From: Patescibacteria group bacterium
GTDB lineage: Bacteria > Patescibacteriota > JABMPQ01 > JAQVVF01
Assembly: GCA_028699085.1 (NCBI GenBank)
Contig: JAQVVF010000002.1
Span: forward strand, 132,557 to 196,556
Reading direction: 5' to 3'
Length of the DNA: 64,000 nt
Under the pieces are notes generated by a model, which saw nothing but the letters and a program-made list of their open reading frames with translations, was not told the DNA's origin and did not search any database. The stretch's first letter is position 1, and every line of letters starts with the position of its first letter. A program made the position numbers and the translations under genes. Shown here piece after piece: positions 14,133-53,290 of the stretch.

Positions 14133-15853
<1,721 letters not shown>

Positions 15854-35142: not shown

Positions 35143-35168
35143 AGCCAATATTAGAAGAAATTTTATTA

Positions 35169-36012: not shown

Positions 36013-36049
36013 ATAAATTTTTAATTTTTAATTTTTTATATTTTAAACA

Positions 36050-36394: not shown

Positions 36395-36412
36395 TAGACT
36401 TATTAAAAAATT

Positions 36413-36513: not shown

Positions 36514-36528
36514 AAAATAAGCAAAATT

Positions 36529-37476
36529 ATGACAATTGAACAAATTTACAAATTATCAATCGAGCTTGGTATAAAAGCAGATCTTCGAAACAAAGAAGAT
36601 ATTAAACGAGTTTTATCCGATGCCAAAAAAGAATATCAGGATTTACCAAAATCTGAAAAAGAATATTTTGATAAAGACAAATTTTTTAATCCATATTCGG
36701 ATACTAGAATTCAAATTGACAAACCAAATAAAAAAATTAAGAAAATTTTAACAGGAATTGATATAGATAGCGCTGAAATATTGTTAGCAGATAAACTAAA
36801 GGTAGATTTAATCATCGCTCATCATCCTGTTGGCAAATCACTTGCTGATGGACTAGAAGATGTCATGAAAATGCAAGCTGATATTTTAGCCGACTATGGT
36901 GTTCCAATCAATATTGCTGAAAAACTAATTGAAAAAAGAATTACTGAAGTATCTCAAAAAGTTAAACCAGCTAATCATTATCAATCAGTTGATACTGCTA
37001 AACTTCTAAATATTGGTCTTATGAACACCCATACAGTTTGCGATAATTTGGCAGCAAAATTCTTAAAAGAATTCTTCGAAAAAGAAAAACCTTATAATGT
37101 CGAAGAAGCTTTGCATTGTTTATTGAAAATTCCTGAATATAAACAAGCCAAAAAAATGGGCTTTGGACCATTTGTCATTGTCGGCAGTCCAAAACATCGC
37201 TTAGGAAAAATTGCAATTACAGAAATAACTGGCGGTACTGAAGGATCTAAGCAAATTTATGAAAAGATGGCCCAAGTTGGCATAGGTACAACTATAGCCA
37301 TGCATTTATCCGAAGAACATCGACAAGAAGCTGAAAAAGCAAATATAAATGTCATTGTTGCTGGACATATCTCATCAGATTCGCTAGGTATGAATTTATT
37401 CTTAGACAAACTAGAACAAAAAGGCATTGAAATAATTCCTTGTTCTGGCCTAATCAGAGTCAAAAGAAAAAAATAA
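36529..37476 (+). CDS. Nif3-like dinuclear metal-centre protein (GTP cyclohydrolase I type 2 homolog family)
   Basis: LIIAHHPVG and C-terminal VIVAGHISSDSLG His-rich metal-site motifs typical of the NIF3/YqfO family; 315 aa. Confidence 0.5.
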   Translation: MTIEQIYKLSIELGIKADLRNKEDIKRVLSDAKKEYQDLPKSEKEYFDKDKFFNPYSDTRIQIDKPNKKIKKILTGIDIDSAEILLADKLKVDLIIAHHPVGKSLADGLEDVMKMQADILADYGVPINIAEKLIEKRITEVSQKVKPANHYQSVDTAKLLNIGLMNTHTVCDNLAAKFLKEFFEKEKPYNVEEALHCLLKIPEYKQAKKMGFGPFVIVGSPKHRLGKIAITEITGGTEGSKQIYEKMAQVGIGTTIAMHLSEEHRQEAEKANINVIVAGHISSDSLGMNLFLDKLEQKGIEIIPCSGLIRVKRKK

Positions 37477-37502
37477 TTTATTGCTTACAATTGTCACCTA
37501 AA

Positions 37503-37576
37503 TAAAAAAGACGGAATAATTCGTCTTTTTTTTGTTATTTAGTTATTTACCTGCCTGCCAAAAGGCAGGTAATTTT
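37503..37576. terminator. bidirectional terminator region (two hairpins)
   Basis: GACGGAATaaTTCGTC followed by TTTTTTTT (plus strand; A-run upstream serves the minus strand), and TTACCTGCCtgccaaaaGGCAGGTAA followed by TTTT; lies between convergent genes 36529-37476 and 37583-39070. Confidence 0.55.
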
Positions 37577-37582
37577 GTTATT

Positions 37583-39070
37583 CTAGATATGCGCCTTGCA
37601 CCATGTTACCTTTTTCGCCCATTTCTTTTTCAATGATTTATAATACTTATATTTCTTAGAACCTTCATTATATTTATTCATTAATTTCTTATATTTTGCC
37701 ACATTATCTTTATATACCTGCAGAGATGCTTTTGAACAAAATTTATAGCTCAAGGCTTTGCCTGCATTCAAACGGCCATTTCCATATTCAAATTTACTAT
37801 AATTAGTCATTCCTTTATATGCTGTTCTCTTAATTGCTTTTTTAACCTGAGAAAATGATTTTCCTTTTGAAAATAATAAAGCTGCTACTCCGGCTACATG
37901 CGGAGTTGCCATTGATGTTCCTTGATATAATTGCAGAGAAAACTTTTTATAACTCGTAGTTGGATCAGTATAAGTTTGTTGCAAAATACCATCAAGATAG
38001 CCATCACTATTAAGATCAGCATAAGTATCTCCTCCGGGTGCCATAATATCTAGATGATCGCCATAATTTGAATAATAAGTTCTGATATCAGCGTAATCAG
38101 TTGCACCAACAGAAAAAGATTCCTTATAAGCAGCTGGATAAGCTAACGATGAATCGCCTGTTGTATCAATCCCATCGCCATACGGCCAAGGCCTTTTTCC
38201 ATTGCCAGCAGCAACTGTTACTAATATTCCTTGATCAGTTGCTGTTTGAATTGCTTCTTCAACAACTGCAACAGGGTATTGAAATTCTAAACTCATTGTT
38301 ATTACATTCGCACCGTGATTAATCGCCCAATAAATTCCATCTGCAACATTAGAAGATAATGTACTGCCGTTTGAATAAAAAACATCAACTGGAATTATTG
38401 AAATATTTGGCGCAACTCCAGCAACACCTTTTGAATTATTAGTGCTTTGCGCAATTGTTCCAGCAACATGTGTTCCATGCCCATAATCATCATTGGCATG
38501 ATAACTAACAGTACCATAATAATCAATTGCATTATTATATGGATAAACAAATTTAGTATCCGCTAAATCAGGAGCTTTTGCATACTGACCATATTTTTCA
38601 TATGCTACGCCAGTATCAATAATCGCTACCTTTACGCCGCTTTTTCCTTTTGTTTTTCCCCAAACTTTTTCCATATTTAAATGGTTGTCATCAAAATTCC
38701 ATTGTACTGGATAATAAGGATCATTTGGCGTCCAAGATAATTTTCCTTCGTAATTTGGATGCGCATATTTTACGTTAGAATCATTTCTAAGCAAGACCAA
38801 AAGTTCTTCAACTGATCTATTAGCTGGAACCTGCAAAACAGTATAACCATTGCCTTTCTTTTTAACAATAATTCCATAATTAGCACTCAAGCTTTCTGTA
38901 ACATTTTTAAAAGAATTTTTTTTAAATTTAACCACAACCTCGTCAGGTTTATAACCTAAAACACTTTCTTGACTTTTCACTGGCTTTGAATCATAAAGAC
39001 CGACCAAAAAAGTAATCAAAATAACGATGCACAAAGTTCCTAAGACGCCTGTCCTTTTCAAAATATTCAT
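37583..39070 (-). CDS. secreted S8 subtilisin-like serine protease with Lys-rich C-terminal tail
   Basis: Catalytic triad regions VAIIDTGV (Asp), HGTHVAGTIA (His), GTSMATPHVAGVAALL (Ser); N-terminal signal/TM; C-terminus YKKLMNKYNEGSKKYKYYKSLKKKWAKK. Confidence 0.85.
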   Translation of the reverse strand: MNILKRTGVLGTLCIVILITFLVGLYDSKPVKSQESVLGYKPDEVVVKFKKNSFKNVTESLSANYGIIVKKKGNGYTVLQVPANRSVEELLVLLRNDSNVKYAHPNYEGKLSWTPNDPYYPVQWNFDDNHLNMEKVWGKTKGKSGVKVAIIDTGVAYEKYGQYAKAPDLADTKFVYPYNNAIDYYGTVSYHANDDYGHGTHVAGTIAQSTNNSKGVAGVAPNISIIPVDVFYSNGSTLSSNVADGIYWAINHGANVITMSLEFQYPVAVVEEAIQTATDQGILVTVAAGNGKRPWPYGDGIDTTGDSSLAYPAAYKESFSVGATDYADIRTYYSNYGDHLDIMAPGGDTYADLNSDGYLDGILQQTYTDPTTSYKKFSLQLYQGTSMATPHVAGVAALLFSKGKSFSQVKKAIKRTAYKGMTNYSKFEYGNGRLNAGKALSYKFCSKASLQVYKDNVAKYKKLMNKYNEGSKKYKYYKSLKKKWAKKVTWCKAHI

Positions 39071-39107
39071 ATTGTTTTTTTATTTTTAAAAAATTTAATA
39101 TTTTTAT

Positions 39108-41885
39108 TTAGAATCTTCCAACAACAAATTCTTTGCTATCCAGCGTAAAATTATTACTAATAACAGGTACAGAACTTTGTCCTTTATAACTCCAAGCCTT
39201 AATCGCTGAACTTCCAGACGAAGCAGTAACAATTTCATCATATCCATCATTGTTAATATCTCCGATAGCTAACCTTATATTACTATTATAATTGCCGTAC
39301 GGTAAAAAACCAGAGCTTTTATATTTTTTTTTGCCTTTTTTTGTGAATATCTTTATCTCTTTGTTTGCAGAGCTTGGAATAGCTACAATTTCATCCTTGC
39401 CATCAAAATCTAAATCTCCGCTATCTAATCTAACTCCATTTTTGCTCGAATAAGCTTTCCAGCCTTTGGTCTTAAAAGTTTTTACAAAATCATTTCCTGA
39501 TAATTTATAAGTATAAACTTTAGCTGTATCTTTTTCTTGGCCAACAATAATTTCATCATAATTATCTCCATCTAAATCGCCAACAGCCACAGAAACGCCA
39601 ACTGCCTTTTTAAATGGCTTGAATCCTTTTTTCTTGAATTTAGATTTCCCAGCTTTGTTAAAAACTTTGACTCTCGATTTGCATGGAGATCCTTGACTTG
39701 CAATTATTTCATCATTTCCATCCATATTTAAATCTCCTGAAGCAACATTAATTCCACAATTAGAATTAGAACTTCCAAAAGGATAAAATTCTTTATATAA
39801 TTTAATACCATTTTTATCAGTCACATAAATTACCGACCTTTGTCCTTTTTTTGCACCAACAATTATTTCATCTAATCCATCTTTGTTTACATCTCCAGTT
39901 GTTGCATAATTATTAGATTTAACGCTCACTAAAGAATTATTTTTTGGTACAATCACAACGGGTACGCCAGATGAATAATTGCCTGCGGTATCATAAGTAT
40001 ATATTTTATAATAATATTTTTTATTTTGATTTAAGTTATCATCAGTAAAGCTAGTTTTCTTTTTTTTCATTACTTTCTTGCCATTGGAATAGCTCGTTGG
40101 AAAAGACTTCTTTTTTCTCATTATCTTCACTTTTTTAAAATCCCATGCAGTTGGATTTTTCCATTTAAAATAAATACTTCCATTTTTTACTATCTGTCTT
40201 AAATTAGAAATATTATCAGGAGCAGAATCAATTACTGTAAAAGCATTTGTTGCTGAAGTTGTCTTACCATTTGAAGTCACAGAAATATCATAAGTCCCAG
40301 CTGAAATATGCTTTGGAACTGTTGCTGTTATTGTTGTACCATTTACAACATTTACATTAGTCATTGCTGTTGAACCAATAGCCATCGTCGCGCCAGCAAC
40401 AAAATTAGTTCCAGTTATTGTTATATTTTCATTGCTAGAATTATCCGCTGAAGATACTGATAAAGATTTAACTGTTGGAAATGTGAATGCATTAGCAGCA
40501 TTCAAAAGTCCATGGCCATATTCTGTATCATATCCGGAAGTGCCTAAATCAGTAGCAGAATTATCAACTATTGATCTTATATTATTTGCTGGAACATTAT
40601 TTGCCATCAATAATGCCGCTGTTCCCGCAACATGCGGTGTTGCTTGCGATGTCCCATTAATTGGCCAAGTTGTAAAAGATCCATAACCTGTATAATAATC
40701 AGGCTCAAAAAATGATGCAAAACTTTGCTGAACAACTCCATCTCCAGAGCATAATCTTGTATCTGCAACTCCATAAGCCAACCAAACTGCAGTCACACAA
40801 TCTGATAAAGTAGCATAATTGCTCAATCCCCATCCATAAAAACCATTATAATAGCCTTCATCAGTCTGACCTCCAGGAGCAACTAAATCCAAACCAGTAC
40901 CATAATTTGAAAAAGTAGATCGCAAATTGTTATGATATCTTGTTGAACCAACTGAAATTACTTGAGACAATCTTGCAGGATAATCCAATTCCGGATCTCC
41001 AATACCATCTCCCCCGCCATTGCCTGCAGCAGCAACCATTATTACTCCAGAATTGGAAGCATCAGTTACAGCATCCGCAATAGTTTGAGAATAGCTTGTT
41101 CCTCCTAAACTCATATTAATTATTTTCGCTCCATTATTTTTTGCGTATGTAATTCCAGATGCAATCCAATCATTTTGTCCACTGCCCTCGCTATTCAAAA
41201 CTTTTACTGGCATTATTGTTGAATTAAAAGCAACCCCTGATCCAGCAACACTATTATCAGTACTTTCTGCAATCGTACTCGCAACATGAGTTCCATGACC
41301 TTGATCATCATTTGGATGCGCATCATTATTCACAAAATCATAGCCAGTTGCAAATGCCGGATAACTGCCAGTGAAATCAGTTGCCTTAGAATAAATATCC
41401 CAATTTTCATATGCAACTCCAGTATCAACAACTGCAACAATAATTGAGGGATCTCCTCCATACAACGGCGTCGTTGTATCATAATCCCAAGCACTGCTCA
41501 ATCCAATCGTTGCAAAATGCCATTGATTAGTATAAAGCGGATCATTTGGAGTAAATGACGCATGATAAATATAATTCGGCTCTGCATATTCTACTTCTGG
41601 TCTTAATTTTTTATTATTATAATATTCAACTGCCTGATCAACAGTCGCAGTTGTCGGCAATTCCAAAACTGTAAAATTGGCAGATTCATCAGTTCGAACA
41701 ACAGTTGAATTAAAACCATTTGCTATTTTTCCAATAGTTTCCGCAGTTGTCGCCACATTTTGTTTTAACTTTACAATAATTTGATTAGGCACATATTCAT
41801 CTGTTGCCAAAGAAAAATTAGAAGCAAAAAAAACACCAGATATTATCAATACAGAAGATAATAATAATTTCATTGTTTTTTTCAT
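39108..41885 (-). CDS. secreted S8 subtilisin-like protease fused to IPT/TIG-like and FG-GAP (integrin-alpha-like) repeat domains
   Basis: VAVVDTGVAYEN, HGTHVASTIA, GTSQATPHVAGTAALL; TIG-like ITITGTNFVAGATM...; repeated DxDGxDEI(I/V) FG-GAP motifs (DGLDEIIVG, NMDGNDEIIAS, DLDGDNYDEIIVG, DFDGKDEIVAI, NNDGYDEIVTA); 925 aa. Confidence 0.85.
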   Translation of the reverse strand: MKKTMKLLLSSVLIISGVFFASNFSLATDEYVPNQIIVKLKQNVATTAETIGKIANGFNSTVVRTDESANFTVLELPTTATVDQAVEYYNNKKLRPEVEYAEPNYIYHASFTPNDPLYTNQWHFATIGLSSAWDYDTTTPLYGGDPSIIVAVVDTGVAYENWDIYSKATDFTGSYPAFATGYDFVNNDAHPNDDQGHGTHVASTIAESTDNSVAGSGVAFNSTIMPVKVLNSEGSGQNDWIASGITYAKNNGAKIINMSLGGTSYSQTIADAVTDASNSGVIMVAAAGNGGGDGIGDPELDYPARLSQVISVGSTRYHNNLRSTFSNYGTGLDLVAPGGQTDEGYYNGFYGWGLSNYATLSDCVTAVWLAYGVADTRLCSGDGVVQQSFASFFEPDYYTGYGSFTTWPINGTSQATPHVAGTAALLMANNVPANNIRSIVDNSATDLGTSGYDTEYGHGLLNAANAFTFPTVKSLSVSSADNSSNENITITGTNFVAGATMAIGSTAMTNVNVVNGTTITATVPKHISAGTYDISVTSNGKTTSATNAFTVIDSAPDNISNLRQIVKNGSIYFKWKNPTAWDFKKVKIMRKKKSFPTSYSNGKKVMKKKKTSFTDDNLNQNKKYYYKIYTYDTAGNYSSGVPVVIVPKNNSLVSVKSNNYATTGDVNKDGLDEIIVGAKKGQRSVIYVTDKNGIKLYKEFYPFGSSNSNCGINVASGDLNMDGNDEIIASQGSPCKSRVKVFNKAGKSKFKKKGFKPFKKAVGVSVAVGDLDGDNYDEIIVGQEKDTAKVYTYKLSGNDFVKTFKTKGWKAYSSKNGVRLDSGDLDFDGKDEIVAIPSSANKEIKIFTKKGKKKYKSSGFLPYGNYNSNIRLAIGDINNDGYDEIVTASSGSSAIKAWSYKGQSSVPVISNNFTLDSKEFVVGRF

Positions 41886-41968
41886 ATATTTTAAATAATT
41901 AGCAATTTAACAATAAAATATAACTAATCTAACTTATCTAACCAATCTAACTTATTAACTCGTTTTTA

Positions 41969-42442
41969 TTAATATAATCCAGCTTCATGCAAAGTTGAAA
42001 TATAAGTTTCCAAATATCCTTTTAAAGTCACAACACCATTATTTTTCTTTACAACCTGAAAAACAACTGCCTGCGGATAGACACTACAAGTCGGGACCTT
42101 TCTAGCAATAATCACGCCTCTTTTTTTTGCCTTAACAGTAGTAAAATAGCTATTCCATTGATCTTCTGTCAAAATCTTTTTCTGTAATACTAAATAATCA
42201 GTTTGCTTAATTTCTGTTTTCAAAATACTTTTTGGATAATAATGACCTTCTGACATAAAAGTACCAATCAAATATCCAGTTGATCTTGAATTTGCATAAT
42301 TATCAACTAATCTGCTATAGCGAGCTTGATTCAAATAATCGCCAATTCCGTTCAGATGATTTTTGAAAGTCCTTGCATCAGCATAATTTGTTGTAACAAA
42401 AAACAAACAAAACATAATGCTTGAGAAAACAATTTTTTTCAT
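41969..42442 (-). CDS. hypothetical secreted protein
   Basis: Signal peptide MKKIVFSSIMFCLFFVTTNYADA; no recognisable domain. Confidence 0.4.
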   Translation of the reverse strand: MKKIVFSSIMFCLFFVTTNYADARTFKNHLNGIGDYLNQARYSRLVDNYANSRSTGYLIGTFMSEGHYYPKSILKTEIKQTDYLVLQKKILTEDQWNSYFTTVKAKKRGVIIARKVPTCSVYPQAVVFQVVKKNNGVVTLKGYLETYISTLHEAGLY

Positions 42443-42544
42443 TTTTTTAATTTATTTTTTATACCCTTTTATCTTTTATTTATTATAACATTAATAAGAT
42501 AAAAGTTATCAACAAAAATATTAACCTTATAAAGAATATTTCAT

Positions 42545-45500
42545 CTACAATTGAAACGCATCCTTATCCGCAATCACAAATTTTGCTTTAGAAAGCGAAG
42601 TAAAATGATAGATTGGCGCAAAGTTTTGATTGCTACCTTTCTTGGTTTTAGCAATCGATGTTGGTCTTAGATAATAGTTTCTGATTTTGAATTTTAGGAT
42701 ATTCTTTTCTTTGTTTTGGTAAATAGTGAAAGGTCCGCGCCATTTGTTATCTCTATCTTTGATAAAAAGACGGAGATTCTTTTCTTTAAGTTTGTTTTTC
42801 TTTAGCTTTTTTGTTTTGTAGTGGAAAGTGATTTTGAAAGTAGTTTTACGGATATTCTTGATGTTTGATTTTAGAATAAGGTAAGAAGGATAAAGTTTTT
42901 TCTTGATAAAATGACGGGAAGAATATTTTTTGTTTTTGCGAATTAATGTTAGATAAAGACCAGTAGAATTAGATGGCTTTTCATAGAAATAGACTTTGAT
43001 GTCTTGTCCTAGATCTTGATATGTTCTCAACAAATTAGTTTGCTCTAAATTTAATGTTTGATTAAAATCAGTTGCCATAGAATTCAAGGCTGTAAAAGTT
43101 GTTGCTTCAGGTTGGCTGATCATTGTATTGCCAGCTAGATCTTTCGCATTTCTGACTGATATGTATCCAGAAGTGTTAGTATAGGAGCTATCCAAAACAA
43201 TATTTCCAGTCCATGTCTTTCCTGAATATGATGTTTGGACTACTCCATAGTTTTCAGTTCTCAATCCTGTAATTTCAACAACTGGCAATGCTGTTGTTAA
43301 CATGTTTTCTGAAAATACAATTGTTACTGTGACTAAACCAGCTTGAGCTGGATTTGGAGTATACGAAATTGAAGAAATAGTCGGTAGAATGCTTTCAACT
43401 TGAAATGTCGAAGCAGTCAGATCAGGCAACATTGTATTTCCAGCAATATCTTTAGCGCCTGTTACAGAAATCGTTGCTGTTGCATCTTCATTGTCAGGAT
43501 TTAAAGTAAAAGTGCCGTACCAAATAGCAGAGCCATAAATATTCTGGCTGACTGTGTAAGAATTGGTTAAGCCATTTATCGTTACTGTCGGTGTGACAGT
43601 TGTATCCATGGCTTGCGAAAAGTAAAGAATGACTCCTACTGTTCCAGGAATAGCTGGATTAGGATTAACAATGATTGAAGTAAGATATGGCGCAATAGTG
43701 TTGACTTCAAAAGTGCCAGCTGACAAATCAGCTAACATTGTATTGCCAGCTAGATCTTTTGCATCTGCAACCGAAATTACTGCAGTCTCAATTTCATCAT
43801 CATCAAGCAAAGCAAAAGTGCCAGTCCACAAATTACCATAGCTAGTTTGAGCTACAAGATATGGACTGCTAACCAAGCCTGTGATATTGACTGTTGGTGA
43901 GACAGTTGTATCCATTGTTTCCGAGAATACCAAGCTAACTGTTACATTTCCAGGCTTGGCTGGATTTGGAACAGCTATCGCTGATGTGACTGTTGGTTTT
44001 GTTTCATCAAGAATGATTGTACTGGAAATGCCAGTGCTTTCTGAAAGCAACTTGTCTCTGTATTTGACATAGACTGTCTTTGTCCCATCTCCTGACGATA
44101 ATGTAAAGTTCTTTGATGTAGCATAAGTTTCCCAACTAGCGCCAACAAAAGTCGCGCTTTCTGAAACCATCATCTGATATGCATCAGACGATGCTGATAA
44201 ATTCAAAGTAACAGCTGTTGTATTTGTATAACTTGCTCCAGAATTAATTGCAATTGACGTGGAAGTCGGGGCGGAGCCGAAGATGTGATAAACTACACTA
44301 GAATAAAATGGCGGGATAGAAGTACTACTATAGCCAACCATATGAACATTATCATCATTATCTAAAGCTAAGCTGGGATATTGACCAAAATAACTTATCT
44401 CATTTACTGCCTGCACAACCCATGAATTTTCTTTATAGGCAAAATTTAAAAAATTAGTTGCACTGTTATAGTAGGAGATATTTGGAATGTTTGAACTATT
44501 TAATTTTAAGGTAATGTAACTGCCATAGCTAGCATTAGCATCAACAAATTCTGTATGCCAGCCATCAATATTTTTGTAAGCATATTTCACTTTAAAATTA
44601 GTAGCATCATAATACGCAATATGCGGATAATTGGAACTGTCTAAATCAAGAGAGTTATATTCACCAACACTGCCACTAGAATCAGCAATTTCTGTATGCC
44701 AACCAGTGCCATCTTTGTAAGCATACATTAAATTAGTATTAGTATAATCATAATAGCTGACACAAGGATAATTATTAGAATTGATCTTAATTGAAGATTG
44801 CATGTTATAACCATAATAACCGCCAATACTACCAATAGTTTCTGTATGCCAGCCAGCCCCATCTTTATAAGCATGTTTGACTTGACCTGAAGTACTATAA
44901 TAATAACTGATGTGCGGATAGTTATTCTGATCTATTGCAATCGAGCTAAAATACCCAGTATCATTTACTGAATCAACTGTTTCTAAATGCCAGCCTGAAG
45001 CATCTTGATAAGCATATTTAAGATCATTAACACCTGTATAATGATAACTAATATGCGCGTAATTATTCTGATCTATTGCAATATCTGTCCCGTATGGAGT
45101 ACTAGAAGTATTATCCAACAAAGTTGTATTCCATCGATCATCATCCATATATCCATAACCAACAAAACTCATTCCAGAAGAACTAATACGCACCTCGTCG
45201 TTATTATCAATAATAACTTTGTTAGCATAGTTAAAATATTTAAGCTGATTGCTATTCCAAGCTCCGTTATAGTATGCGCGATAGATATTTGAGCTATATG
45301 TATACCCTATTTGCGGTAAATCAGTGGAAGTCAAATCAATTGACGTCCTACTCGAATTGCAATTAGTATTTACAATCGTTGGATTCCAAGCCCCACTATC
45401 TTTATACGTGTACTTTAAATCTGCATTAGTATTATCATAATAGCTAATATGCGGTCGATTACTATTGTCAGTCACAATAGAAGTATATTGACCAATATTA

Positions 45501-46366
45501 GCGCTACTAGAATCAACTGTTTCTGTTGCCCAAACCCCGCTATCTTTTAAAGCATATTTAAGATCATAATTTGTGCCATCATAATAGCTAATATGAGGTC
45601 GATTTAATAAATCAATTGCAATTGAGCTAAGTGTCCCAACAGAGCCCACAGAATCAACAGTCTCTTTGTGCCAACCATTGATATCTTGATAGGCATATTC
45701 AAGATCATAATTTGTATTATCATAATAGCTAATATGAGCATAGTTAAGATTATCTAGAACTATAGAAGGATGATAGGCGTTAACCGTATTATCAAGAGTC
45801 TGAGTATGCCAGCCATTAATATCTTTATAGGCATACATTAAATAGTATTGATAAGAAAGAGGTATATAATATTTAGTATAAGCAATATGCGGATAACCAT
45901 TGCTGTCAATAGCAATCGAATTATACCTAACATTAGCATTATCAAGATCAACAATCTCACTATGCCAGCCAGATATATCTTGATATGCATAATGAAGATA
46001 ATAGCTCGTTGTATCTATATAGCTGATGTGCGGATAACCATTGCTATCAAGATCCAAAGAATGGCCATAAGTATCACTAATAACATCATAGCTTGCATCA
46101 GGATCAATTGTTTCAAAATATAGCTGGCCATTAACATCTAAAGTTCCATACTTTATTTTTTTTAAATAATAATCATAGCAAGCAATGCTATAACGATCAT
46201 TGCTTTTATTAATCTTCAAAACCGGATTATAACAAACATTACTTGTCCCATCAACCTTCTCCATCGTCAACGCCATCGCCTTATTACAATCCAAACCAAA
46301 AAAGACAGCAAATAGGCTTATGCTGATAAGACAAAAAAATGAAAAAATTATGATTTTTTTAATCAT
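42545..46366 (-). CDS. giant repeat-rich cell-surface protein (N-terminal anchor, >=12 tandem ~45-aa repeats, four ~95-aa Ig-like repeats, Lys-rich tail)
   Basis: Repeats of form S(I)AID.NNYPHISYYD.TNYDLKYAYKD..GWHTETVDS; central SESATFVGASWETY...GDGTKTVYVKYRD; four repeats each ending AKDLAGNTM; basic C-terminus. Confidence 0.7.
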   Translation of the reverse strand: MIKKIIIFSFFCLISISLFAVFFGLDCNKAMALTMEKVDGTSNVCYNPVLKINKSNDRYSIACYDYYLKKIKYGTLDVNGQLYFETIDPDASYDVISDTYGHSLDLDSNGYPHISYIDTTSYYLHYAYQDISGWHSEIVDLDNANVRYNSIAIDSNGYPHIAYTKYYIPLSYQYYLMYAYKDINGWHTQTLDNTVNAYHPSIVLDNLNYAHISYYDNTNYDLEYAYQDINGWHKETVDSVGSVGTLSSIAIDLLNRPHISYYDGTNYDLKYALKDSGVWATETVDSSSANIGQYTSIVTDNSNRPHISYYDNTNADLKYTYKDSGAWNPTIVNTNCNSSRTSIDLTSTDLPQIGYTYSSNIYRAYYNGAWNSNQLKYFNYANKVIIDNNDEVRISSSGMSFVGYGYMDDDRWNTTLLDNTSSTPYGTDIAIDQNNYAHISYHYTGVNDLKYAYQDASGWHLETVDSVNDTGYFSSIAIDQNNYPHISYYYSTSGQVKHAYKDGAGWHTETIGSIGGYYGYNMQSSIKINSNNYPCVSYYDYTNTNLMYAYKDGTGWHTEIADSSGSVGEYNSLDLDSSNYPHIAYYDATNFKVKYAYKNIDGWHTEFVDANASYGSYITLKLNSSNIPNISYYNSATNFLNFAYKENSWVVQAVNEISYFGQYPSLALDNDDNVHMVGYSSTSIPPFYSSVVYHIFGSAPTSTSIAINSGASYTNTTAVTLNLSASSDAYQMMVSESATFVGASWETYATSKNFTLSSGDGTKTVYVKYRDKLLSESTGISSTIILDETKPTVTSAIAVPNPAKPGNVTVSLVFSETMDTTVSPTVNITGLVSSPYLVAQTSYGNLWTGTFALLDDDEIETAVISVADAKDLAGNTMLADLSAGTFEVNTIAPYLTSIIVNPNPAIPGTVGVILYFSQAMDTTVTPTVTINGLTNSYTVSQNIYGSAIWYGTFTLNPDNEDATATISVTGAKDIAGNTMLPDLTASTFQVESILPTISSISYTPNPAQAGLVTVTIVFSENMLTTALPVVEITGLRTENYGVVQTSYSGKTWTGNIVLDSSYTNTSGYISVRNAKDLAGNTMISQPEATTFTALNSMATDFNQTLNLEQTNLLRTYQDLGQDIKVYFYEKPSNSTGLYLTLIRKNKKYSSRHFIKKKLYPSYLILKSNIKNIRKTTFKITFHYKTKKLKKNKLKEKNLRLFIKDRDNKWRGPFTIYQNKEKNILKFKIRNYYLRPTSIAKTKKGSNQNFAPIYHFTSLSKAKFVIADKDAFQL

Positions 46367-46520
46367 CTTGCTTTTTGTTTTTTTATTCGTCCAAAATATT
46401 ACAAATCATGCCTACAAAAACATAGAGGTTGACTTGTTCCCTATTTGTTTTATTATACCATTTTTTTAACAAAAGATATCAACAAAAAAAGCTAACATTA
46501 TTTGTTAGCTCTATAAACTA

Positions 46521-46616
46521 GGAGGCTCAGCCTTTTACTTAAACGATATAGTCATTTTCTTAAATTAGTCACAATTTAAAACATTGCGCTTTCTTTTTAA
46601 TAAAAGGCTGAGCCTC
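46521..46616 (+). repeat. 16-nt perfect inverted repeat GAGGCTCAGCCTTTTA / TAAAAGGCTGAGCCTC separated by 63 nt
   Basis: Arms 46522-46537 and 46601-46616; lies in the intergenic region between the M23 peptidase gene end and the giant surface protein gene start. Confidence 0.5.
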
Positions 46617-46726
46617 TTGTTGAGCTTTCTTGCTTAAAAGTTATTATCAACATAATAAAAAAGACTAACCTATAAAGATTAGCCATAAAGTGCATTCGTT
46701 TTTTTACTTTTTAATTTTTTATTTTT

Positions 46727-48523
46727 TTATGGTTGCCAAACATAACATTCAATTCCTTCATTTCGATAACCTAAATTAGAAATTGCATTATCTCTTTCAT
46801 CACGACTTATCGTATACAAATGGTCAGTAGTCGCATTATTATATAGTCTAAACAAAGGCTTAGATCCAGATATTTCTTGTCTTGCGCAAAAACCAATATC
46901 GCCTTTTTGTTCATAATTATTAGCAGAATCTCTTTCATCTGTTGAAATTGTATAAAAATGATCTCTCGGATTTTCTCTTTTTAATTTCCACAATTTGACT
47001 AATCTGCCATCAACTCGCTCTCGATAGGTTTTAAATTGTTCACCTTCAAATCTATAGCCATCAACTCCATCATTTTCTAGTCTTAATAAATGCGCTATAT
47101 CTCCATTACTATTATAGTAATATCTAAAAACTTGTTGCTTGCAATGCGCTCCGTCATCAATTAATCCATTGCAATCATTATCTTTTAGATCACAATTTTC
47201 AAGACTTCGACCACTTGGAACACAATCAGTCAAACTCGCCCAAAGACATGTTGGTCCGCAAGTCCTCGTTGCTCTGCCAACTCTGCACTCTCCTATATTA
47301 TATTGGCATTCAAATTCTTCAACTTGGTTTGGCGCGCACACTCCTTGCTCCTCACAAACATTCCAACTCTGCCAAAGACAATTTATCCCACATTCCCGCC
47401 TCATTCTGCCACAATGCCCGCATGGCTCAACTTGGAATTGTAATGACTCACATTCAAGTCCAACTAACAATCCGCATTGACTCCATTCAGTCCAGCGCAA
47501 TCTATCGTTGCAATGCCTGATCTGTTCACCGCAAAAATCGCATAGCTTTTTTTCAATCTGTCCAAGCTGGCATTCTGCAATATTTCTGACAATAATTCTA
47601 AAATGCATTTCTGCCCAATCATTCAAAAATCCAGCAGACTTATGCCAAATTCTAAAATACACTTTATATTCATGATTTAATTCAACATTATTTCTTGCTT
47701 TTACTTTGAATCTAAACCAAGCAATTTCATTAGAAGCAACTCTAGCAGTTGTCTGGCTAGTTACTCGTTCACAATTATTTCCCAGCCAAGAGTTATGACA
47801 CAACAGACTTTCTGTTATATCGCCATCGCGATTTACAGATCTTAATTCAACATAATTATTATTTTCTCTATCATTGCTCCAAAAATTTGATCCAGTATTT
47901 TTAAAAGCAACAATAAATTCTTTTTCCTCACCTTGATCAAATTCAATCAAGCCATCAGGACTTTGCCGATAATATTCGCAAGAATATCTAGGCTGACCAA
48001 AATTTCCAGAAGTTAAAATAATGCCATTAAAAATATTATGCCCTTCAATTGGCGATGGTTCGACTGACACGCCATTTTGAAATAAACAAAAATGCAAATG
48101 CGATCCAGTAGAAAAAGGCATGCCTGGAGTATTATCACATTTTCCAATTACATCGCCATGCAGAACTCTTTGACCAAAAGCAACAGCAGGCTGTTCCAAT
48201 AAATGCGCATACAAAGTTTGGGTATTGTTGGCATGATTAATTTTTACCATCCAACCATAGCCGTCATTAAAAAATGCTTGAGATACAACTCCATCAGCAA
48301 CTGCCAGAATATCTTGCCCCATATCATCAAAATCGATTGCATTTGCATCAACACAAAAATGGCTCAACCCGACATGATAACCCTCGCCATAATAATTACC
48401 ACTGCCACCAATTTGCCAACGCTGTCCTGCTCTCCACGGCGCATATAATTCAATAGGAGCAGCAAAAGAATTAAAACTAAACAATGAAGCAACAAAACAA
48501 AAAAGCAAATTCTTAATGTTCAT
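46727..48523 (-). CDS. secreted M23 (LytM-type) metallopeptidase with Cys-rich middle region and C-terminal YTIS..ERD repeats
   Basis: HVGLSHFCVDANAID and TGSHLHF (M23 HxxxD / HxH); >30 Cys in the middle region; C-terminal duplicated DHFYTISTDERD / DHLYTISRDERD; start refined to MNIKNLLF (48523); apparently higher GC than surroundings. Confidence 0.7.
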   Translation of the reverse strand: MNIKNLLFCFVASLFSFNSFAAPIELYAPWRAGQRWQIGGSGNYYGEGYHVGLSHFCVDANAIDFDDMGQDILAVADGVVSQAFFNDGYGWMVKINHANNTQTLYAHLLEQPAVAFGQRVLHGDVIGKCDNTPGMPFSTGSHLHFCLFQNGVSVEPSPIEGHNIFNGIILTSGNFGQPRYSCEYYRQSPDGLIEFDQGEEKEFIVAFKNTGSNFWSNDRENNNYVELRSVNRDGDITESLLCHNSWLGNNCERVTSQTTARVASNEIAWFRFKVKARNNVELNHEYKVYFRIWHKSAGFLNDWAEMHFRIIVRNIAECQLGQIEKKLCDFCGEQIRHCNDRLRWTEWSQCGLLVGLECESLQFQVEPCGHCGRMRRECGINCLWQSWNVCEEQGVCAPNQVEEFECQYNIGECRVGRATRTCGPTCLWASLTDCVPSGRSLENCDLKDNDCNGLIDDGAHCKQQVFRYYYNSNGDIAHLLRLENDGVDGYRFEGEQFKTYRERVDGRLVKLWKLKRENPRDHFYTISTDERDSANNYEQKGDIGFCARQEISGSKPLFRLYNNATTDHLYTISRDERDNAISNLGYRNEGIECYVWQP

Positions 48524-49175
48524 TTTCTTCCTCCTGAAATTCAAAGCTCTCCATCATCTCTTCAAACTCTGATAAAAATACTGTATCTCTTTCTAATACA
48601 GTTGCAGAAAAAAAATAAATCTTATCATTCCTTGCAAAATAATAATCCTCAATATATCCAGACATCCATTCGCCTTGATAATCTTCAGGAATTTCTCTGC
48701 AATCAAATAATATTCTCAAACTCTCATTGCTTATTTCATAATCTAACAGTACTCCTCTAAAATTAGGTCGCTTCGAAATTGCAAAATTCCACAAATCAAG
48801 ATTATCAGAATTATCATAATTTAAACCTTCCACTAAAATCTCATTTTCTTTTGGATGGTACAATTCATCAAAATCAAAATTGCCCATCATCAAAACAAGT
48901 CCAGAATCTATTTCACCTGTTTCCAAAAAATTCCAAGTATTTGGATATAACATTCTAAAACCCAATTCATAATTTTGATAATCAATCTTGCGTGAATCTC
49001 TAGGCTTTTTTTCATCAAAGTTATCATCATTAGAATTTGACTCTTCTTCTTTTACCTCGCTTGTATCATTGCTTCTTAATTCAATCTCTGGAATCATTCC
49101 GATATTATCATTGCTATCTACACAACCAAAAAACAAAAAACTTAGCCAAATAAAAAACCCTCCCTTTATTTTCAT
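48513..49175 (-). CDS. hypothetical acidic lipoprotein
   Basis: MKIKGGFFIWLSFLFFGC lipobox; Asp/Glu-rich mature protein. Confidence 0.4.
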   Translation of the reverse strand: MKIKGGFFIWLSFLFFGCVDSNDNIGMIPEIELRSNDTSEVKEEESNSNDDNFDEKKPRDSRKIDYQNYELGFRMLYPNTWNFLETGEIDSGLVLMMGNFDFDELYHPKENEILVEGLNYDNSDNLDLWNFAISKRPNFRGVLLDYEISNESLRILFDCREIPEDYQGEWMSGYIEDYYFARNDKIYFFSATVLERDTVFLSEFEEMMESFEFQEEENEH

Positions 49176-49285
49176 TCTTGCCTCCTTTGTTCGCCAAAGC
49201 TAAAGCTTTGGCAAACTATTGTGAAAAGATCAAGAATTTTCCCTCCAAACATATTATAATACATTTGAATAAATATTTAATATTT

Positions 49286-49909
49286 ATGATCAAAATTTCA
49301 AAACATTTTTTTATAATTCTAGTTTTAATTTTATCAACTTATCTTTTGATAAATACGCCAACTATAATTAATCAAACAGATTTAAATTTTAAAAAACAAA
49401 AAAAGATTAAACAAGCAACAAAGATTCTTAATCATAAGTCATACAATAACAACACCTTAATCATTCCAAATTTAGGAATTTCTGCGCCAATAAAATTTAT
49501 TAAAAAACCTGCCCGCAATGCTACGCATAGCGTTGCAGGCGGGCAAAATGAAGAAATAATTTTGGAAAATTTGAAAAAGGGGATTGTCCATTTTCCCTTA
49601 ACCTCCAAACCAAACAAAATCGGCAATTCAGTTTATATCGGTCATTCTTCAAATTCTTTATGGAACAGGGGAGATTATGATTCAGTTTTTTTAAATCTAA
49701 ACCAAATAAAAAAAGACAATCTCATCTTTATTGCCTATAATAATAAATTATATAAATATAAAACTTTCCAAAAATTCTACATCAGCCCTTCTGATCTTTC
49801 AATCTTCAATCAAACAAATAATAAAATCATTACTCTTTTAACTTGCTGGCCACCTAACACTACATTCTCTCGTCTCGCAGTCCAGGCAAAACAAATAAAA
49901 TATAAGTAA
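49286..49909 (+). CDS. sortase-family transpeptidase (N-terminal TM anchor)
   Basis: Catalytic His in YIGHSS, Cys in TLLTCWPP (TLxTC), Arg in SRLAV; start refined to MIKISKHFFIILVLIL at 49286 (the track's extension from 49178 covers a TATAAT promoter-like region). Confidence 0.7.
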   Translation: MIKISKHFFIILVLILSTYLLINTPTIINQTDLNFKKQKKIKQATKILNHKSYNNNTLIIPNLGISAPIKFIKKPARNATHSVAGGQNEEIILENLKKGIVHFPLTSKPNKIGNSVYIGHSSNSLWNRGDYDSVFLNLNQIKKDNLIFIAYNNKLYKYKTFQKFYISPSDLSIFNQTNNKIITLLTCWPPNTTFSRLAVQAKQIKYK

Positions 49910-50009
49910 TTTAACAAAAAAAACAAAAAGTGATATTATTAACTATCCCATCTAGTTAGATCTTTTTAAAAAAACAGCCCCCCAAAACCTCAAACAAGGA
50001 GGAGAAAAA

Positions 50010-50300
50010 ATGGCAACAAAAAAGATTTTGTCCAAATTGTTTATTAGCATGATTGCTCTCTTCATTCTGTTTCCATCAATTTCTTTTGCCAAAGGCAGTG
50101 TTTCAGCAACTTTGACTGTCACTGCAACTGTTGTAAAACCAACAACCTTGCAAATTTCCAAAGTTACTACCAAAGGAGTAGTATCAGACAAAACCTCAAC
50201 AGTGACTTATAACGCCGTTTCTGATGTAGAACCAATTATTGAAGTCAAAAAAGAAATCATCAAAGGGCAATTTGTCGAAATTGTGACTATAACTTTCTAG
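50010..50300 (+). CDS. small secreted beta-rich protein, paralog 1 of 3
   Basis: SD AAGGAGGAGAAAAA; signal peptide cleavage ~SFA/KG; mature ~68 aa; C-terminus KKEIIKGQFVEIVTITF. Confidence 0.6.
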   Translation: MATKKILSKLFISMIALFILFPSISFAKGSVSATLTVTATVVKPTTLQISKVTTKGVVSDKTSTVTYNAVSDVEPIIEVKKEIIKGQFVEIVTITF

Positions 50301-50330
50301 AAATTCCGCAGAAAAAAGGAGAATAAAATA

Positions 50331-50618
50331 ATGACAAAAAAAAGATTGCTTGAATTGCTCATCGCAACATTTGCCTTCCTCATTTTCTTGCCAACAGCTT
50401 CTTTTGCCCAAGGCAGTGGTTCAGGAACAATGATTGTCACTGCAACTCCCGTAAAACCAACAACTTTGCATCTCTCCAAAGCTACTGTCAAAAGAATCGT
50501 CTCCGACAAAACTGTATCAATTAGTTACAATGCCATTTCTGATCTATCGCCAGTAATTGAAGTAAAAAAAGAAATCATCAAAGGACAGTTTGTCGAAATT
50601 GTGACTGTAACTTTCTAG
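50331..50618 (+). CDS. small secreted beta-rich protein, paralog 2 of 3
   Basis: SD AAAAGGAGAATAAAATA; ~65% identity to paralog 1 with identical C-terminal block VIEVKKEIIKGQFVEIVTVTF. Confidence 0.6.
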   Translation: MTKKRLLELLIATFAFLIFLPTASFAQGSGSGTMIVTATPVKPTTLHLSKATVKRIVSDKTVSISYNAISDLSPVIEVKKEIIKGQFVEIVTVTF

Positions 50619-50646
50619 AAATTCCATAGAAAAAAGGAGAAAAAAA

Positions 50647-50940
50647 ATGGCAACAAAAAAAATATTGTCAGGATTATTCTTTGCAATTATCGCCTTCCTC
50701 ATCTTTTTGCCAGCAACTTCTTTTGCCAAAGGCAGTGCTTCAGGAACAATGATCGTCAGTGTCACTGGCGCAGCAAAACCAAAAACATTACAAATCTCCA
50801 AAGCTACTGTCAAAAACATGGCTTCTGATGAAACAATAGAAATCAGATATAATCCAGTATCAGATATAAAACCGCTAATCGAAATCACAAAAAAAATCAT
50901 CAGAGATCAATTTGTTGAAACCATTACTATAATTTTCTGA
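50647..50940 (+). CDS. small secreted beta-rich protein, paralog 3 of 3
   Basis: SD AAAAAGGAGAAAAAAA; most divergent paralog (LIEITKKIIRDQFVETITIIF); followed by a terminator. Confidence 0.6.
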   Translation: MATKKILSGLFFAIIAFLIFLPATSFAKGSASGTMIVSVTGAAKPKTLQISKATVKNMASDETIEIRYNPVSDIKPLIEITKKIIRDQFVETITIIF

Positions 50941-50961
50941 AATTCCTGCTTTTTAAAAATC

Positions 50962-50990
50962 AAAAACCCCACTTTAATGGGGCTTTTTTT
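50962..50990. terminator. bidirectional rho-independent terminator
   Basis: AAAAA-CCCCActttaaTGGGG-CTTTTTTT. Confidence 0.65.
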
Positions 50991-52359
50991 ATTTCTCTAT
51001 TTTTTTAACTTCAGCTCTCGCTTTTTTACCTGCATCAATTATATTTTTTGTTTTTTCTTTTTTATTTGAAACTTTGGCACTATTTTCATTAAATTTTTTC
51101 TTCATCACTTCCTTATAATCTTTTGTTTCTTTCCATAATTTAAAAGGAATAGTATAGCTTACTGCTTTTCCATATTTCAAAGAATAAGCAATTTGTTTTG
51201 TATTATATCCGCCATAAATATAAGCATTTTTCAAATTAATCCATTTCCAAGTATATGCTTTTGGCAAATATTTTGCTCGATCTTTTTTGGTCTTAAAATA
51301 ATTTTTCTTTAAGTTTTTTGTTAATTCAGCAACTAAAACTTTTTGTTCTGCTTTAGTAATCTTTTTCTTCCCGTATGGTCCAATTTTAATATTAGTATAC
51401 CAACCCCAAGCTGGTTTTGGTTGCATATCTTTTTTCAGCAAACCAAAATGATCTTCATATAATCCACGATAATCGTAGTTTCTAATATTATAAAGTAAAA
51501 TTGTTTCTACGTATTTGCGTCTTAATATTTCTGGAATTGCATTTTCAAAATATTCTTTTTGCATTTGATCTGTAATTCCTGTACCGCCAGTTGAAGCGCC
51601 CATTTCTGTGATCCAGATCTTATGATTTTTTTTATACTTTTTCATTATCAAGCTTGCTCGATCTAAATCAGATAACAATGCATTCAAGCTTCTGCCTTCT
51701 AAAAAATATTGATTAGCATAATACAAATGGATGCCTAATCCATCAAAATAGTTTCCATATTTTTGATACATTTGTTCGATAAAATGTGGATTTGGCCAAG
51801 ATAATCCGCCTGTAATTACTATCGCATCTGGATCAACCATTTTTATAACAGTATAAGCAGGTTTCAAAATCATTCCATAAGCTTTTGGATTATTAGGAGT
51901 CAAATAAGTAGGTGAGTCAGGTTCATTCCAAACTTCCCAAACATCCACATAATCTTTATAACGATCCGCAACTAGCGCCACAAATTCACGCCAGATTACT
52001 TCATTTGGTACACGAAAATCATCATGATCTTTATTATATGCCAACATACCGACTACTTTGATGTTTTGTTTTTTATAATCCTCCATTATCAAATCATAAC
52101 GATTTAGCCATGCATCAATATCATTGCCCCATAAAGATTCCATCTGAAAATGCTCTCGAACAATCTTAGTTTTGCTATCTTTTAATCTAATATCATAATC
52201 ATCATCCAAGCCATCATTATCTCCGCCTAAAACCCAATGCACATTCAAACCTACCTTGTCTTTATAAGGAATAGGATTTACCTTAGCTAAGCCAAAACCT
52301 GGCAAAAACACGCTTGCTAGAAATAGCACTAAAGTTGTCAAAATAAGGCTCTTTTTCAT
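50989..52359 (-). CDS. secreted clan GH-A glycoside hydrolase (GH5/GH39-like) with Lys-rich C-terminal tail
   Basis: Signal peptide; WEVWNEPD (acid/base NEP) and IWITEMG (nucleophile TE); C-terminal ~70 aa Lys-rich. Confidence 0.7.
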   Translation of the reverse strand: MKKSLILTTLVLFLASVFLPGFGLAKVNPIPYKDKVGLNVHWVLGGDNDGLDDDYDIRLKDSKTKIVREHFQMESLWGNDIDAWLNRYDLIMEDYKKQNIKVVGMLAYNKDHDDFRVPNEVIWREFVALVADRYKDYVDVWEVWNEPDSPTYLTPNNPKAYGMILKPAYTVIKMVDPDAIVITGGLSWPNPHFIEQMYQKYGNYFDGLGIHLYYANQYFLEGRSLNALLSDLDRASLIMKKYKKNHKIWITEMGASTGGTGITDQMQKEYFENAIPEILRRKYVETILLYNIRNYDYRGLYEDHFGLLKKDMQPKPAWGWYTNIKIGPYGKKKITKAEQKVLVAELTKNLKKNYFKTKKDRAKYLPKAYTWKWINLKNAYIYGGYNTKQIAYSLKYGKAVSYTIPFKLWKETKDYKEVMKKKFNENSAKVSNKKEKTKNIIDAGKKARAEVKKIEK

Positions 52360-52460: not shown

Positions 52461-52811
52461 TCACTTCAAATCATTATCACAAATACTCGACAATAAGATT
52501 GCTTGATCATGAAAAGCCTGCAGAGCCACTTGATATGCTTTTTTGCCTTTTTTAGTTAATGAATAAACTTTCTTTTTCTTTTTACCAATCGCTACTTCAT
52601 TCTTTTCAACATACTTGCCTCTTAATAATAGATTTAAAGTTGGATATATTGTCCCAAAAGATGGGGAACAATAACCAAAAGAATTGCGAAAAACTAAAGA
52701 AGCAAGTTCATATCCATAACATTCTTTATCATACAGTGCTGACAAAATAAAAAATTTCGTAATTGATTTTTTAATTAAATCGTCCCAATATTTTTTTGTT
52801 TCCAGTTTCAT
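52461..52811 (-). CDS. PadR-family transcriptional regulator
   Basis: CYGYELASLV...GTIYPTLNLLLRGKYVEKNE winged-helix signature. Confidence 0.75.
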   Translation of the reverse strand: MKLETKKYWDDLIKKSITKFFILSALYDKECYGYELASLVFRNSFGYCSPSFGTIYPTLNLLLRGKYVEKNEVAIGKKKKKVYSLTKKGKKAYQVALQAFHDQAILLSSICDNDLK

Positions 52812-53290
52812 ATTTTATATAGTTATCCAATATATTGTCTATCGATATATATTATATAATAATTAAATTAATTTATTAAATAATTATCCACAAAAATAAA
52901 ATGGGGAATAGGATTTTTTTTAAAAACCAACTCAAATATCAATTATTATTTATAATAATCAATAAAAAATATTAATATTATTCTCTTTTCTCGCTTCTGA
53001 CTTCTCTATAGATAAAACTGCTACTTTGATTTTCTCATAAATATAAAATCACTAAAATCATAAAATTTTTGAATTTTGAAATTAGATATTAATAAATTGA
53101 ATGGAAATTAAGAATTAGAAATTAAAAATTAACGTTTTATTTAACAAAAAACTTTTTTATTCAAAAAATAAATAAAAATTGCAATGGGGAAGTGCAGGGG
53201 ATTTGTTTTTTTCGCTCTACTCTTCTCTATTCCCTATTTTTAATACTTTATTTTAATTTTTTTATACAAAATGCTATACTATATCTAACA

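Follow-up and report, generated by a model that had tools for sequence, protein, structure and literature searches.

The 64-kb stretch of contig JAQVVF010000002.1 analysed here (the window) contains, between positions 37583 and 52359, a run of 11 consecutive genes for exported proteins. The contig, 200.5 kb in length, belongs to a metagenome-assembled genome (MAG) deposited as 'Patescibacteria group bacterium'; the 11 products are its NCBI entries MDD3887524-534 (locus tags PHN19_020xx) and already bear generic PGAP names (S8 family peptidase, immunoglobulin (Ig)-like domain-containing protein, peptidoglycan DD-metalloendopeptidase, glycosyl hydrolase, hypothetical protein). Position 37583 is the stop of the first subtilase gene (A) and 52359 the start of a glycoside hydrolase gene (I). 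On the minus strand the order of transcription is F, E, D, C, B, A, that is, from a lipoprotein (F) and an M23 peptidase (E), through a large surface protein in a variable slot (D) and a short secreted protein (C), to two subtilases (B and A). The genes for a sortase (G) and three small paralogues (H1-H3) lie on the plus strand, divergent from F, and I, again on the minus strand, is convergent with H3. A first-pass annotation of this DNA had drawn exactly these limits but had counted nine consecutive genes with signal peptides; the consecutive run stands, at 11 genes, with H1-H3 (50010-50940) having gone unlisted.

Export signals were assigned by a simple heuristic rule (the first 35 residues had to contain a Lys or Arg and, after it, a hydrophobic core of 10 residues; polytopic membrane proteins were not counted). 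All 11 genes of the cluster qualify, as against ~7 of the 43 other genes in the window, so that an uninterrupted run of this length can hardly be due to chance. In F there is a lipobox (LFFG↓C), which its relatives preserve; G has an uncleaved N-terminal membrane anchor, and A, in which no AXA cleavage site is visible, may for that reason be a signal-anchor protein.

The flanks of the cluster are made up of housekeeping genes: SmpB, tmRNA, L20 and NIF3 on one side and PadR, a polysaccharide deacetylase, NifU and ABC transporters on the other, with several aminoacyl-tRNA synthetases at a greater distance. Related contigs (designated L001, L002 and so on) were gathered through homologues of D and E (P0002, P0004, P0172 and P0175; an exact-sequence look-up of D and of P0003 gave no contig). 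In L003, a GTDB species representative consisting of a single 654-kb contig, E is 82% identical and the order is ABC3-ABC-NifU-PDA-PadR-GH-sortase-F-E-slot-C-B-A-NIF3-L20 (PDA, polysaccharide deacetylase; GH, glycoside hydrolase). L012 (a 258-kb contig, E 75% identical) has this order minus PadR; the Joint Genome Institute (JGI) contigs L001 and L002 jointly cover it, with conserved genes that are 83-97% identical; and L015 (E 55% identical) retains sortase-F-E-slot. The same context, between the NIF3/L20 and the NifU/ABC genes, is found in four related genomes. Relative to L003, the conserved genes of the cluster are 68-82% identical (89% for I) and the housekeeping neighbours 82-95%. Because gene order and context are shared in this way, the cluster is a stable chromosomal feature of its lineage and not an acquired island. 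Two positions within it vary, the D slot and the H trio. The picture given on first pass, of exported hydrolases and surface proteins densely packed amid housekeeping genes, holds for this Patescibacteria (candidate phyla radiation, CPR) MAG with its species-level relative on a single 654-kb contig. Synonymous divergence between the window and L001/L002, followed over the genes at 34074-52359, is uneven (0 for SmpB, 0.12 for subtilase A, 1.1 for NIF3), and differences of this size from gene to gene suggest frequent recombination among strains of the population.

D (42545..46366, minus strand) is a protein of 1273 amino acids (aa) that starts with a signal peptide, likely to be cleaved at AMA↓LT, and continues with the two kinds of tandem repeat already noticed on first pass. 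Residues 33-700 (44267..46270) are predicted to form ~13 β-propeller blades of 47-50 aa each, encoded by DNA repeats 141-150 nt apart; this region is acidic (pI 4.6) and fast-evolving. Residues 701-1090 (43097..44266) comprise one Ig-like domain and three Ig-like repeats of ~100 aa (DNA spacing ~306 nt) and are 90-96% conserved. At the C-terminus, residues 1095-1273 (42548..43084) constitute a basic domain of ~175 aa, here called the K domain, with a net charge of +30, a pI of 10.3 and a predicted all-β sandwich fold; D outside this domain is acidic. The protein matches no Pfam, NCBIfam or PHROGs family, a sub-threshold match to 'tandem large repeat' being all that was found. Compared with the 75%-identical homologue P0003, the propeller half of D shows 54-69% identity and the remainder (stalk and K domain) 86-96%. 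The ratio of nonsynonymous to synonymous substitution rates (dN/dS), measured against L002, reaches 0.37 in the propeller, compared with 0.13 in the stalk, 0.15 in the K domain and ~0.05 in NIF3, L20 and I.

What occupies the slot differs from relative to relative. The window has a BNR-like propeller followed by the Ig stalk and the K domain, and L001 and L002 have two D-type genes in tandem (the open reading frames (ORFs) of 262 aa and 949 aa in L001 are fragments of a single gene, interrupted by a gap in the assembly). L003 encodes at this position a protein of 833 aa that has DUF5122/Rax2-type propellers and shows no similarity to D by BLAST; the occupant in L012-L014, of 859 aa, has a propeller of the YNCE/lactonase type; and in L015 there is another propeller type (Ycf48-like by eye, with no family scan) combined with CHB_HEX_C-like (chitobiase-C-like) repeats. 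All of these slot proteins match a hidden Markov model (HMM) of the K domain, strongly in the window, L001 and L002, with a match cut off by the contig end in L015, and in diverged form, with filters off, in L003 (E 2e-7) and L012 (E 1e-4). D as the target of a diversity-generating retroelement was considered and rejected: D is not part of any long pair of near-identical repeats, and none of the 30 proteins scanned, which come from the cluster and the genes directly beside it, has a reverse transcriptase domain. Neither such an element nor phase-variation repeats appeared in the repeat analysis of the window.

The K domain is not peculiar to D. When residues 1080-1273 were used as the query for an exhaustive search of 1.84 billion representative proteins by HMMER, only 18 proteins fell below 1e-10, each with the domain at its C-terminus. 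Ten of them were inspected; their N-terminal parts are mutually unrelated and include a right-handed β-helix, an SGNH/GDSL lipase, FG-GAP repeats, several propeller types and chitobiase-C repeats. At least three copies are present in the source MAG (two of them, MDD3887927 and MDD3888022, assigned by accession numbers within the range expected for that MAG) and at least five in another Patescibacteria MAG. Several exported proteins of one genome thus share a conserved inner domain and differ in their outer domains. AlphaFold2, given a 10-sequence alignment, returns a confident all-β sandwich for the K domain (pLDDT 82, pTM 0.80), which matches no family in Pfam, NCBIfam, PHROG or PDB. Foldseek comparison with PDB gave a best E of 0.17 (TM 0.2), and comparison with BFVD a best E of 0.06 (TMq 0.31, and up to 0.41 in the top five), all of the latter being generic tail-fibre sandwiches; a profile search of PDB sequences and Pfam scans of each alignment member yielded noise only. 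A metagenome scan with the K-domain alignment found eight short contigs, none of which carries another gene of the cluster, and K-domain genes elsewhere are therefore not tied to the cluster. In these searches the domain is restricted to this lineage, a genome of which has several copies of it. No wall-anchoring domain of the SLH, CWB2, LysM, SH3b or choline-binding type was found in any protein of the cluster by Pfam and NCBIfam, D having been searched even to an E value of 10.

The enzymes of the cluster are of familiar types, and the catalytic motifs are intact in all five (A, B, E, G and I). A (37583..39070, minus strand, 495 aa) and B (39108..41885, minus strand, 925 aa) are the two S8 subtilases named by the first-pass annotation, scoring 188 and 176 bits against PF00082 (Peptidase_S8, cut-off 21.8). 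A hydrophobic N-terminus (anchor or signal) is followed in A by a propeptide of the fervidolysin type, a catalytic domain with the triad D152/H198/S386 and a basic C-terminal tail of 55 aa (net +15). B has a signal peptide, a propeptide, a catalytic domain (D154/H197/S413) and, beyond it, the TIG and FG-GAP domains that had also been recognized: an IPT/TIG domain, a basic FN3-like segment and an FG-GAP propeller of five repeats spaced ~53 aa. The subtilase motifs DTG, HGTH and GTSxATP, in the order Asp-His-Ser, are at 152/198/384 in A and 154/197/411 in B, and Fervidolysin_NPro-like propeptides (42 bits in A and 57 bits in B, cut-off 21) give both the form of zymogens. The closest solved structures are thermitase and the subtilisins. 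The glycoside hydrolase I (50989..52359, minus strand, 456 aa), assigned to clan GH-A on first pass, has a signal peptide, scores 27.6 bits against Glyco_hydro_cc in Pfam (cut-off 21) and presents both catalytic-Glu contexts (NEP at 145; ITEMG at 250, with the TE motif at 251); its closest solved relative is PslG (E 2e-9, residues 112-318). Strongly basic C-terminal modules recur here: in addition to the tail of A, there are two in the C-terminal third of B (+15 and +13), and a 131-aa tail on I (+26). C (41969..42442, minus strand), a conserved secreted protein of 157 aa and pI 9.6, invariably keeps its place in relatives, with the variable slot on one side and subtilase B on the other; neither it nor F matches a family in Pfam, NCBIfam or PHROGs.

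E (46727..48523, minus strand, 598 aa) has a signal peptide, an M23 metalloendopeptidase domain (PF01551, 73 bits against a cut-off of 28.7) with zinc ligands in H55FCVD59 and H142LH144, an unassigned region of 150 aa, a Cys-rich module and a DUF5648 domain (PF18885, 88 bits against a cut-off of 25, residues 494-603 of the 605-aa form). Its relatives in PDB include M23 peptidases, LytM, LasA and ShyA. The Cys-rich module (residues 318-461) is built of three repeats ending in a DNDCNG motif; the first-pass annotation was right about the M23 domain but had credited the module with more than 30 Cys, when it contains 20 of the 29 in the entire protein. The complete architecture occurs in six protein clusters only, all from this lineage. 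In other proteins DUF5648 is a module for the recognition of glycans or target cells: the toxins BSAP-2 and BSAP-3, which target O-antigen, bind their receptors through it (10.1101/2025.01.06.631476), and in the endolysin of an enterococcal prophage it is thus far a putative domain for binding the wall (10.64898/2026.04.26.720912). E, with an intact M23 domain and DUF5648, has the layout of a targeted lysin. Directly upstream lies F (48513..49175, minus strand), a lipoprotein of 220 aa, the mature form of which is acidic (pI 4.1). F adjoins E in all five genomes, overlapping it by 11 nt in the window and in L012 and by 1 nt in L015, and is the fastest-diverging conserved member of the cluster (48% identity in L012, as against 75% for E). 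That it is a partner of E or an immunity factor is a guess.

G (49286..49909, plus strand, 207 aa), divergent from F and E, is a membrane-anchored sortase, as had been proposed: it scores 68 bits against PF04203 (cut-off 26.6), and the His (H120), the Cys of TLxTC (TLLTC187) and the Arg (R196) are all present. The reading frame is open from 49178, with the ATG at 49286 as the probable real start. G falls into none of the classes A-F, its best NCBIfam class scores being 34-52 bits (13.8 for class F) against cut-offs of 140-166; the closest solved structures are class D sortases (E 1e-6). No LPXTG-type substrate (motif, hydrophobic segment and basic tail) occurs among the cluster proteins, the ORFs of the window or the 15 fetched loci. 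H1-H3 (50010-50300, 50331-50618 and 50647-50940, plus strand) are tandem paralogues of 95-97 aa with signal peptides and a period of 318 nt. The trio is confined to one sublineage, represented by the window and L002; the hydrolase and sortase genes of L003 and L012 abut. Pfam, NCBIfam and PHROGs contain nothing like H1-H3, and a profile of six H sequences, run against 5.8 billion proteins, recovered only those six input-type sequences. Their identity as pilin-like or donor-strand subunits is a guess as well.

Taken together, these properties suggest that the cluster is probably a chromosomal locus passed on by vertical descent, from which a narrow lineage of Patescibacteria obtains much of its exported cell-surface machinery, and that it serves to build and remodel the surface. 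All 11 products would leave the cytoplasm by way of Sec-type signals. D would be a modular surface protein with an acidic propeller 'head', a conserved Ig-like stalk and a basic β-sandwich base, and its position would be an exchange slot, filled by another propeller type or by two copies in close relatives. From the basic character of the K domain and of the modules on A, B and I, we infer electrostatic retention: the K domain would hold modular surface proteins non-covalently on an anionic envelope, much as CWB2 or SLH anchors do, and A and B would remain at the surface through their basic modules, there to process surface proteins and/or to digest external protein for an amino-acid auxotroph. 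DUF5648 would direct E to cell-wall glycan, with F possibly restraining or positioning it; I would trim polysaccharide; and the sortase would serve substrates encoded elsewhere. D itself may be a surface layer (S-layer) protein, an adhesin or both. A more specific version of this scheme can be put forward only tentatively: that the K domain is an undescribed envelope anchor defining a swappable surface repertoire, the D slot a hot spot for propeller heads that set host or partner specificity, F a dedicated immunity or positioning factor for E, and the H trio a set of new small surface subunits.

A number of points weigh against this interpretation. The case for anchoring by the K domain consists of its charge, its position and its presence in several proteins, and Lys-rich sequence is common in a genome of 32% GC. 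In L003 and L012 the domain is internal, and its HMM match is weak, with high compositional bias. The export signals come from the heuristic rule. Every dN/dS value is below 1, so that what has been seen in the D head is faster evolution, which need not mean positive selection. C, F and H1-H3 are without detectable homology to anything characterised, and the AlphaFold2 model of H1 (pLDDT 54) is unusable. Neither the window nor the fetched loci contain a substrate that would account for the place of a sortase in the cluster. Finally, the analysis covers a 64-kb window of the source genome.

The first-pass annotation had gone further and had seen in these genes a concentration of degradative and adhesive exoproteins suited to attachment to, or attack on, host cells. 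In its strong form this makes the locus a toolkit in which D binds a host receptor, E docks through DUF5648 and cuts host peptidoglycan, the subtilases and the glycanase digest the host envelope, and F protects the producer. In favour of this, the large surface protein is replaced or duplicated among close relatives, and its propeller head evolves fastest (dN/dS of 0.37, as against 0.05 in flanking genes); E combines catalysis and targeting after the fashion of bacteriolysins and endolysins, with a DUF5648 that binds receptors in BSAP-2 and BSAP-3 (10.1101/2025.01.06.631476) and a full-length architecture restricted to the six protein clusters of the lineage; and F keeps its place beside E in five genomes, overlapping it in three of them (the window, L012, L015), and diverges quickly. 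Like roles have been proposed for the secreted DD-endopeptidases and giant surface proteins of Vampirococcus, one of the CPR genomes for which a host-attack reading has been advanced before (PMC8080830). Against it, no host is known for the source MAG, M23 enzymes, subtilases and glycanases serve a cell's own envelope equally well, E is without a basic module and yet its release has no support, and no inhibitor-like homology was found for F. The toolkit overlaps with surface building and remodelling, from which it differs only in whose surface is the target, and no observation here tells the one target, a host, apart from the other, the envelope of the cell itself. Host attachment or attack by products of the cluster is plausible, the earlier interpretation being partly supported; the toolkit in full is a possibility that we regard as doubtful.

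A surface-building locus could also be narrower in purpose, with D as the S-layer protein, the whole locus as an S-layer cassette and the subtilases as maturation proteases, as Cwp84 is for SlpA. The D gene has a promoter-like site to itself, with an extended -10, and the protease genes follow it; D has two parts, an inner one that is conserved and an outer one that varies; and its anchor-like domain is common to other exported proteins. For Patescibacteria, new classes of S-layer protein have been predicted, and for Dehalococcoides a propeller-based S-layer (10.1101/2024.05.28.596244), while slpA of Clostridioides difficile varies as a cassette within the conserved cwp locus (10.1101/2025.04.02.646754). 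However, the quite different propeller folds in the slots of relatives would each need a lattice of their own. Moreover, with at least three K-domain proteins in the genome, D need not be the lattice protein, and it has no SLH or CWB2 domain; we consider an S-layer cassette unlikely. Least credible is a horizontally acquired genomic island stocked with exoenzymes, as the word 'island' in the first-pass annotation might imply, with its overtone of dispensable DNA. The GC skew of the D gene is ~0, when that of other minus-strand genes is -0.2 to -0.35, and both the slot contents and the H trio differ among relatives. The skew is explained by the composition of D, which is rich in Ser, Thr, Asn and Tyr and poor in Lys and Glu, and behaviour like that of a variable insert is limited to the slot and the trio. 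The GC content of the cluster (0.32-0.34) is that of its surroundings (0.28-0.35), there is no tRNA gene, Pfam scans of the cluster and its immediate flanks found no mobility domain, and the whole cluster has the same order in the same chromosomal context in four related genomes. On this evidence of composition and synteny, which leaves the marks of an acquired island wanting, that identity was rejected as very improbable.

Among known systems, the closest working analogy to a locus that builds and remodels the surface is the cwp locus of C. difficile (slpA, cwp66, cwp84), an analogy of function and not a family assignment. There too, exported surface-protein genes, one for a protease among them, are gathered on the chromosome; one large bipartite protein varies as a cassette amid conserved neighbours, and an anchor domain, the conserved inner one, recurs on many exported surface proteins (10.1101/2025.04.02.646754). 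The cluster described here is not of cwp type, because CWB2 and SLH domains are absent; it has no other known anchor, and what its proteins share would be a new basic β-sandwich. Its proteases are S8 subtilases instead of a C1 cysteine protease, and it contains no secA2. B resembles the cell-envelope proteinases of Gram-positive bacteria, lactocepin PrtP and streptococcal ScpA/C5a peptidase, in joining an S8 domain and propeptide to Ig/FN3-like β domains, which on this likeness would space the catalytic domain from the wall. It differs from them in lacking an LPXTG signal, in ending with a basic FG-GAP propeller and in having no detected PA or A/B domains.

E, in which an intact M23 catalytic domain is coupled to a separate recognition domain at the C-terminus, is comparable to the targeted M23 bacteriolysins lysostaphin and zoocin A and to BSAP-2/BSAP-3 and the GH25 endolysin of an enterococcal prophage (in the latter three, DUF5648), but adds to the lysostaphin-type plan the 150-aa unassigned region and the 20-Cys module, the full architecture being found in this lineage only. 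I has the NEP and TE motifs of clan GH-A in common with PslG, an exopolysaccharide hydrolase of Pseudomonas aeruginosa, at low sequence similarity; in contrast to PslG it has a 131-aa basic tail, and no polysaccharide-synthesis operon adjoins it. The CPR predator Vampirococcus lugosii likewise combines a reduced genome with secreted peptidoglycan hydrolases, DD-endopeptidases and large propeller, integrin and fibronectin surface proteins, a secretome that has been interpreted as serving host recognition and attack (PMC8080830). It belongs to another CPR lineage, however, its genes are not reported as one conserved cluster, and no shared basic domain or exchange slot has been described in it. 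The literature on sortases and surface proteins of Patescibacteria yielded a passing mention of host fimbriae only, and that on their secreted S8 and M23 enzymes nothing usable. The enzymes of the cluster are ordinary, and annotated as such before. The novelty lies in the undescribed basic domain that modular surface proteins share, in the slot for exchange next to the subtilases and in the orphan trio H1-H3.

To our knowledge, little is understood of how ultrasmall CPR bacteria attach to and feed from other cells beyond the use of type IV pili. In this compact and conserved locus there are candidates that can be tested: a propeller surface protein open to exchange, a lineage-specific basic domain common to many exported proteins and a candidate anchor, two surface subtilases, and a glycan-targeted M23 lysin with its lipoprotein. 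As a sequence tag, the K domain would help to find the surface proteome of the lineage. If it is indeed an anchor, it would be an addition to the small list of bacterial wall-anchoring modules, and a handle for surface display or for the affinity capture of uncultivated cells.

Transcription units in the cluster are suggested by consensus matches only. The promoter-like site of D (46452..46482, minus strand) has the elements TTGATA and, after a 19-nt spacer, TGgTATAAT, an extended -10 (46460-46452). It forms part of a 45-nt direct repeat, 78% identical and reading TTGTTGATAnCTTTT ... TATAAT, that lies on either side of D, at 46444-46488 and, upstream of C, at 42474-42518 (minus strand). This repeat could drive D and C separately or be a recombination substrate for exchange of the slot. 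A near-consensus promoter precedes I (52396-52368). Terminator-like hairpins are found between A and NIF3 (37547-37572), in bidirectional form between H3 and I (50962..50987) and, on the minus strand, twice after E (46684-46663 and 46512-46488). The latter two flank a 95-nt hairpin (46522-46616), between the E terminator and the D promoter, with a perfect 16-bp stem (GAGGCTCAGCCTTTTA / TAAAAGGCTGAGCCTC) and a predicted RNA fold of -37 kcal/mol (z -6.1). This hairpin is conserved in the same place in L012-L014 but is missing from L003 and from the closer relative L002; the window has one copy of it, and no Rfam family matches. Its identity could be that of a small RNA, of a processing site or of what is left of a mobile element.

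Some neighbouring genes and other features of the window may be added. Just beyond the cluster, a polysaccharide deacetylase gene (53192-54127, plus strand) encodes a protein with N-terminal hydrophobic segments; since it stays beside the cluster in L003 and L012, the envelope-related neighbourhood may reach past 52359. The PadR regulator gene (52461-52811, minus strand), upstream of hydrolase I, is absent from L012. A 635-aa ORF (56357-58264, minus strand) between two ABC genes, with no signal peptide and no Pfam match, is absent from L003 and L012. The isoleucyl-tRNA synthetase (17218-20736, minus strand, 1172 aa) contains a complete histidine-phosphatase domain (His_Phos_1, residues 489-670, E 1e-32) inserted within its catalytic domain. 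An A/T-rich repeat of ~55 nt occurs at 4869-4923, 14687-14741 and 59097-59151 in copies that are 78-87% identical, two of them in short intergenic spacers between minus-strand genes. The tmRNA gene (34625-35025) is flanked, at 34573-34614 and 35035-35142, by direct and inverted repeats of the type ATTGGTTATTGATTATTG.

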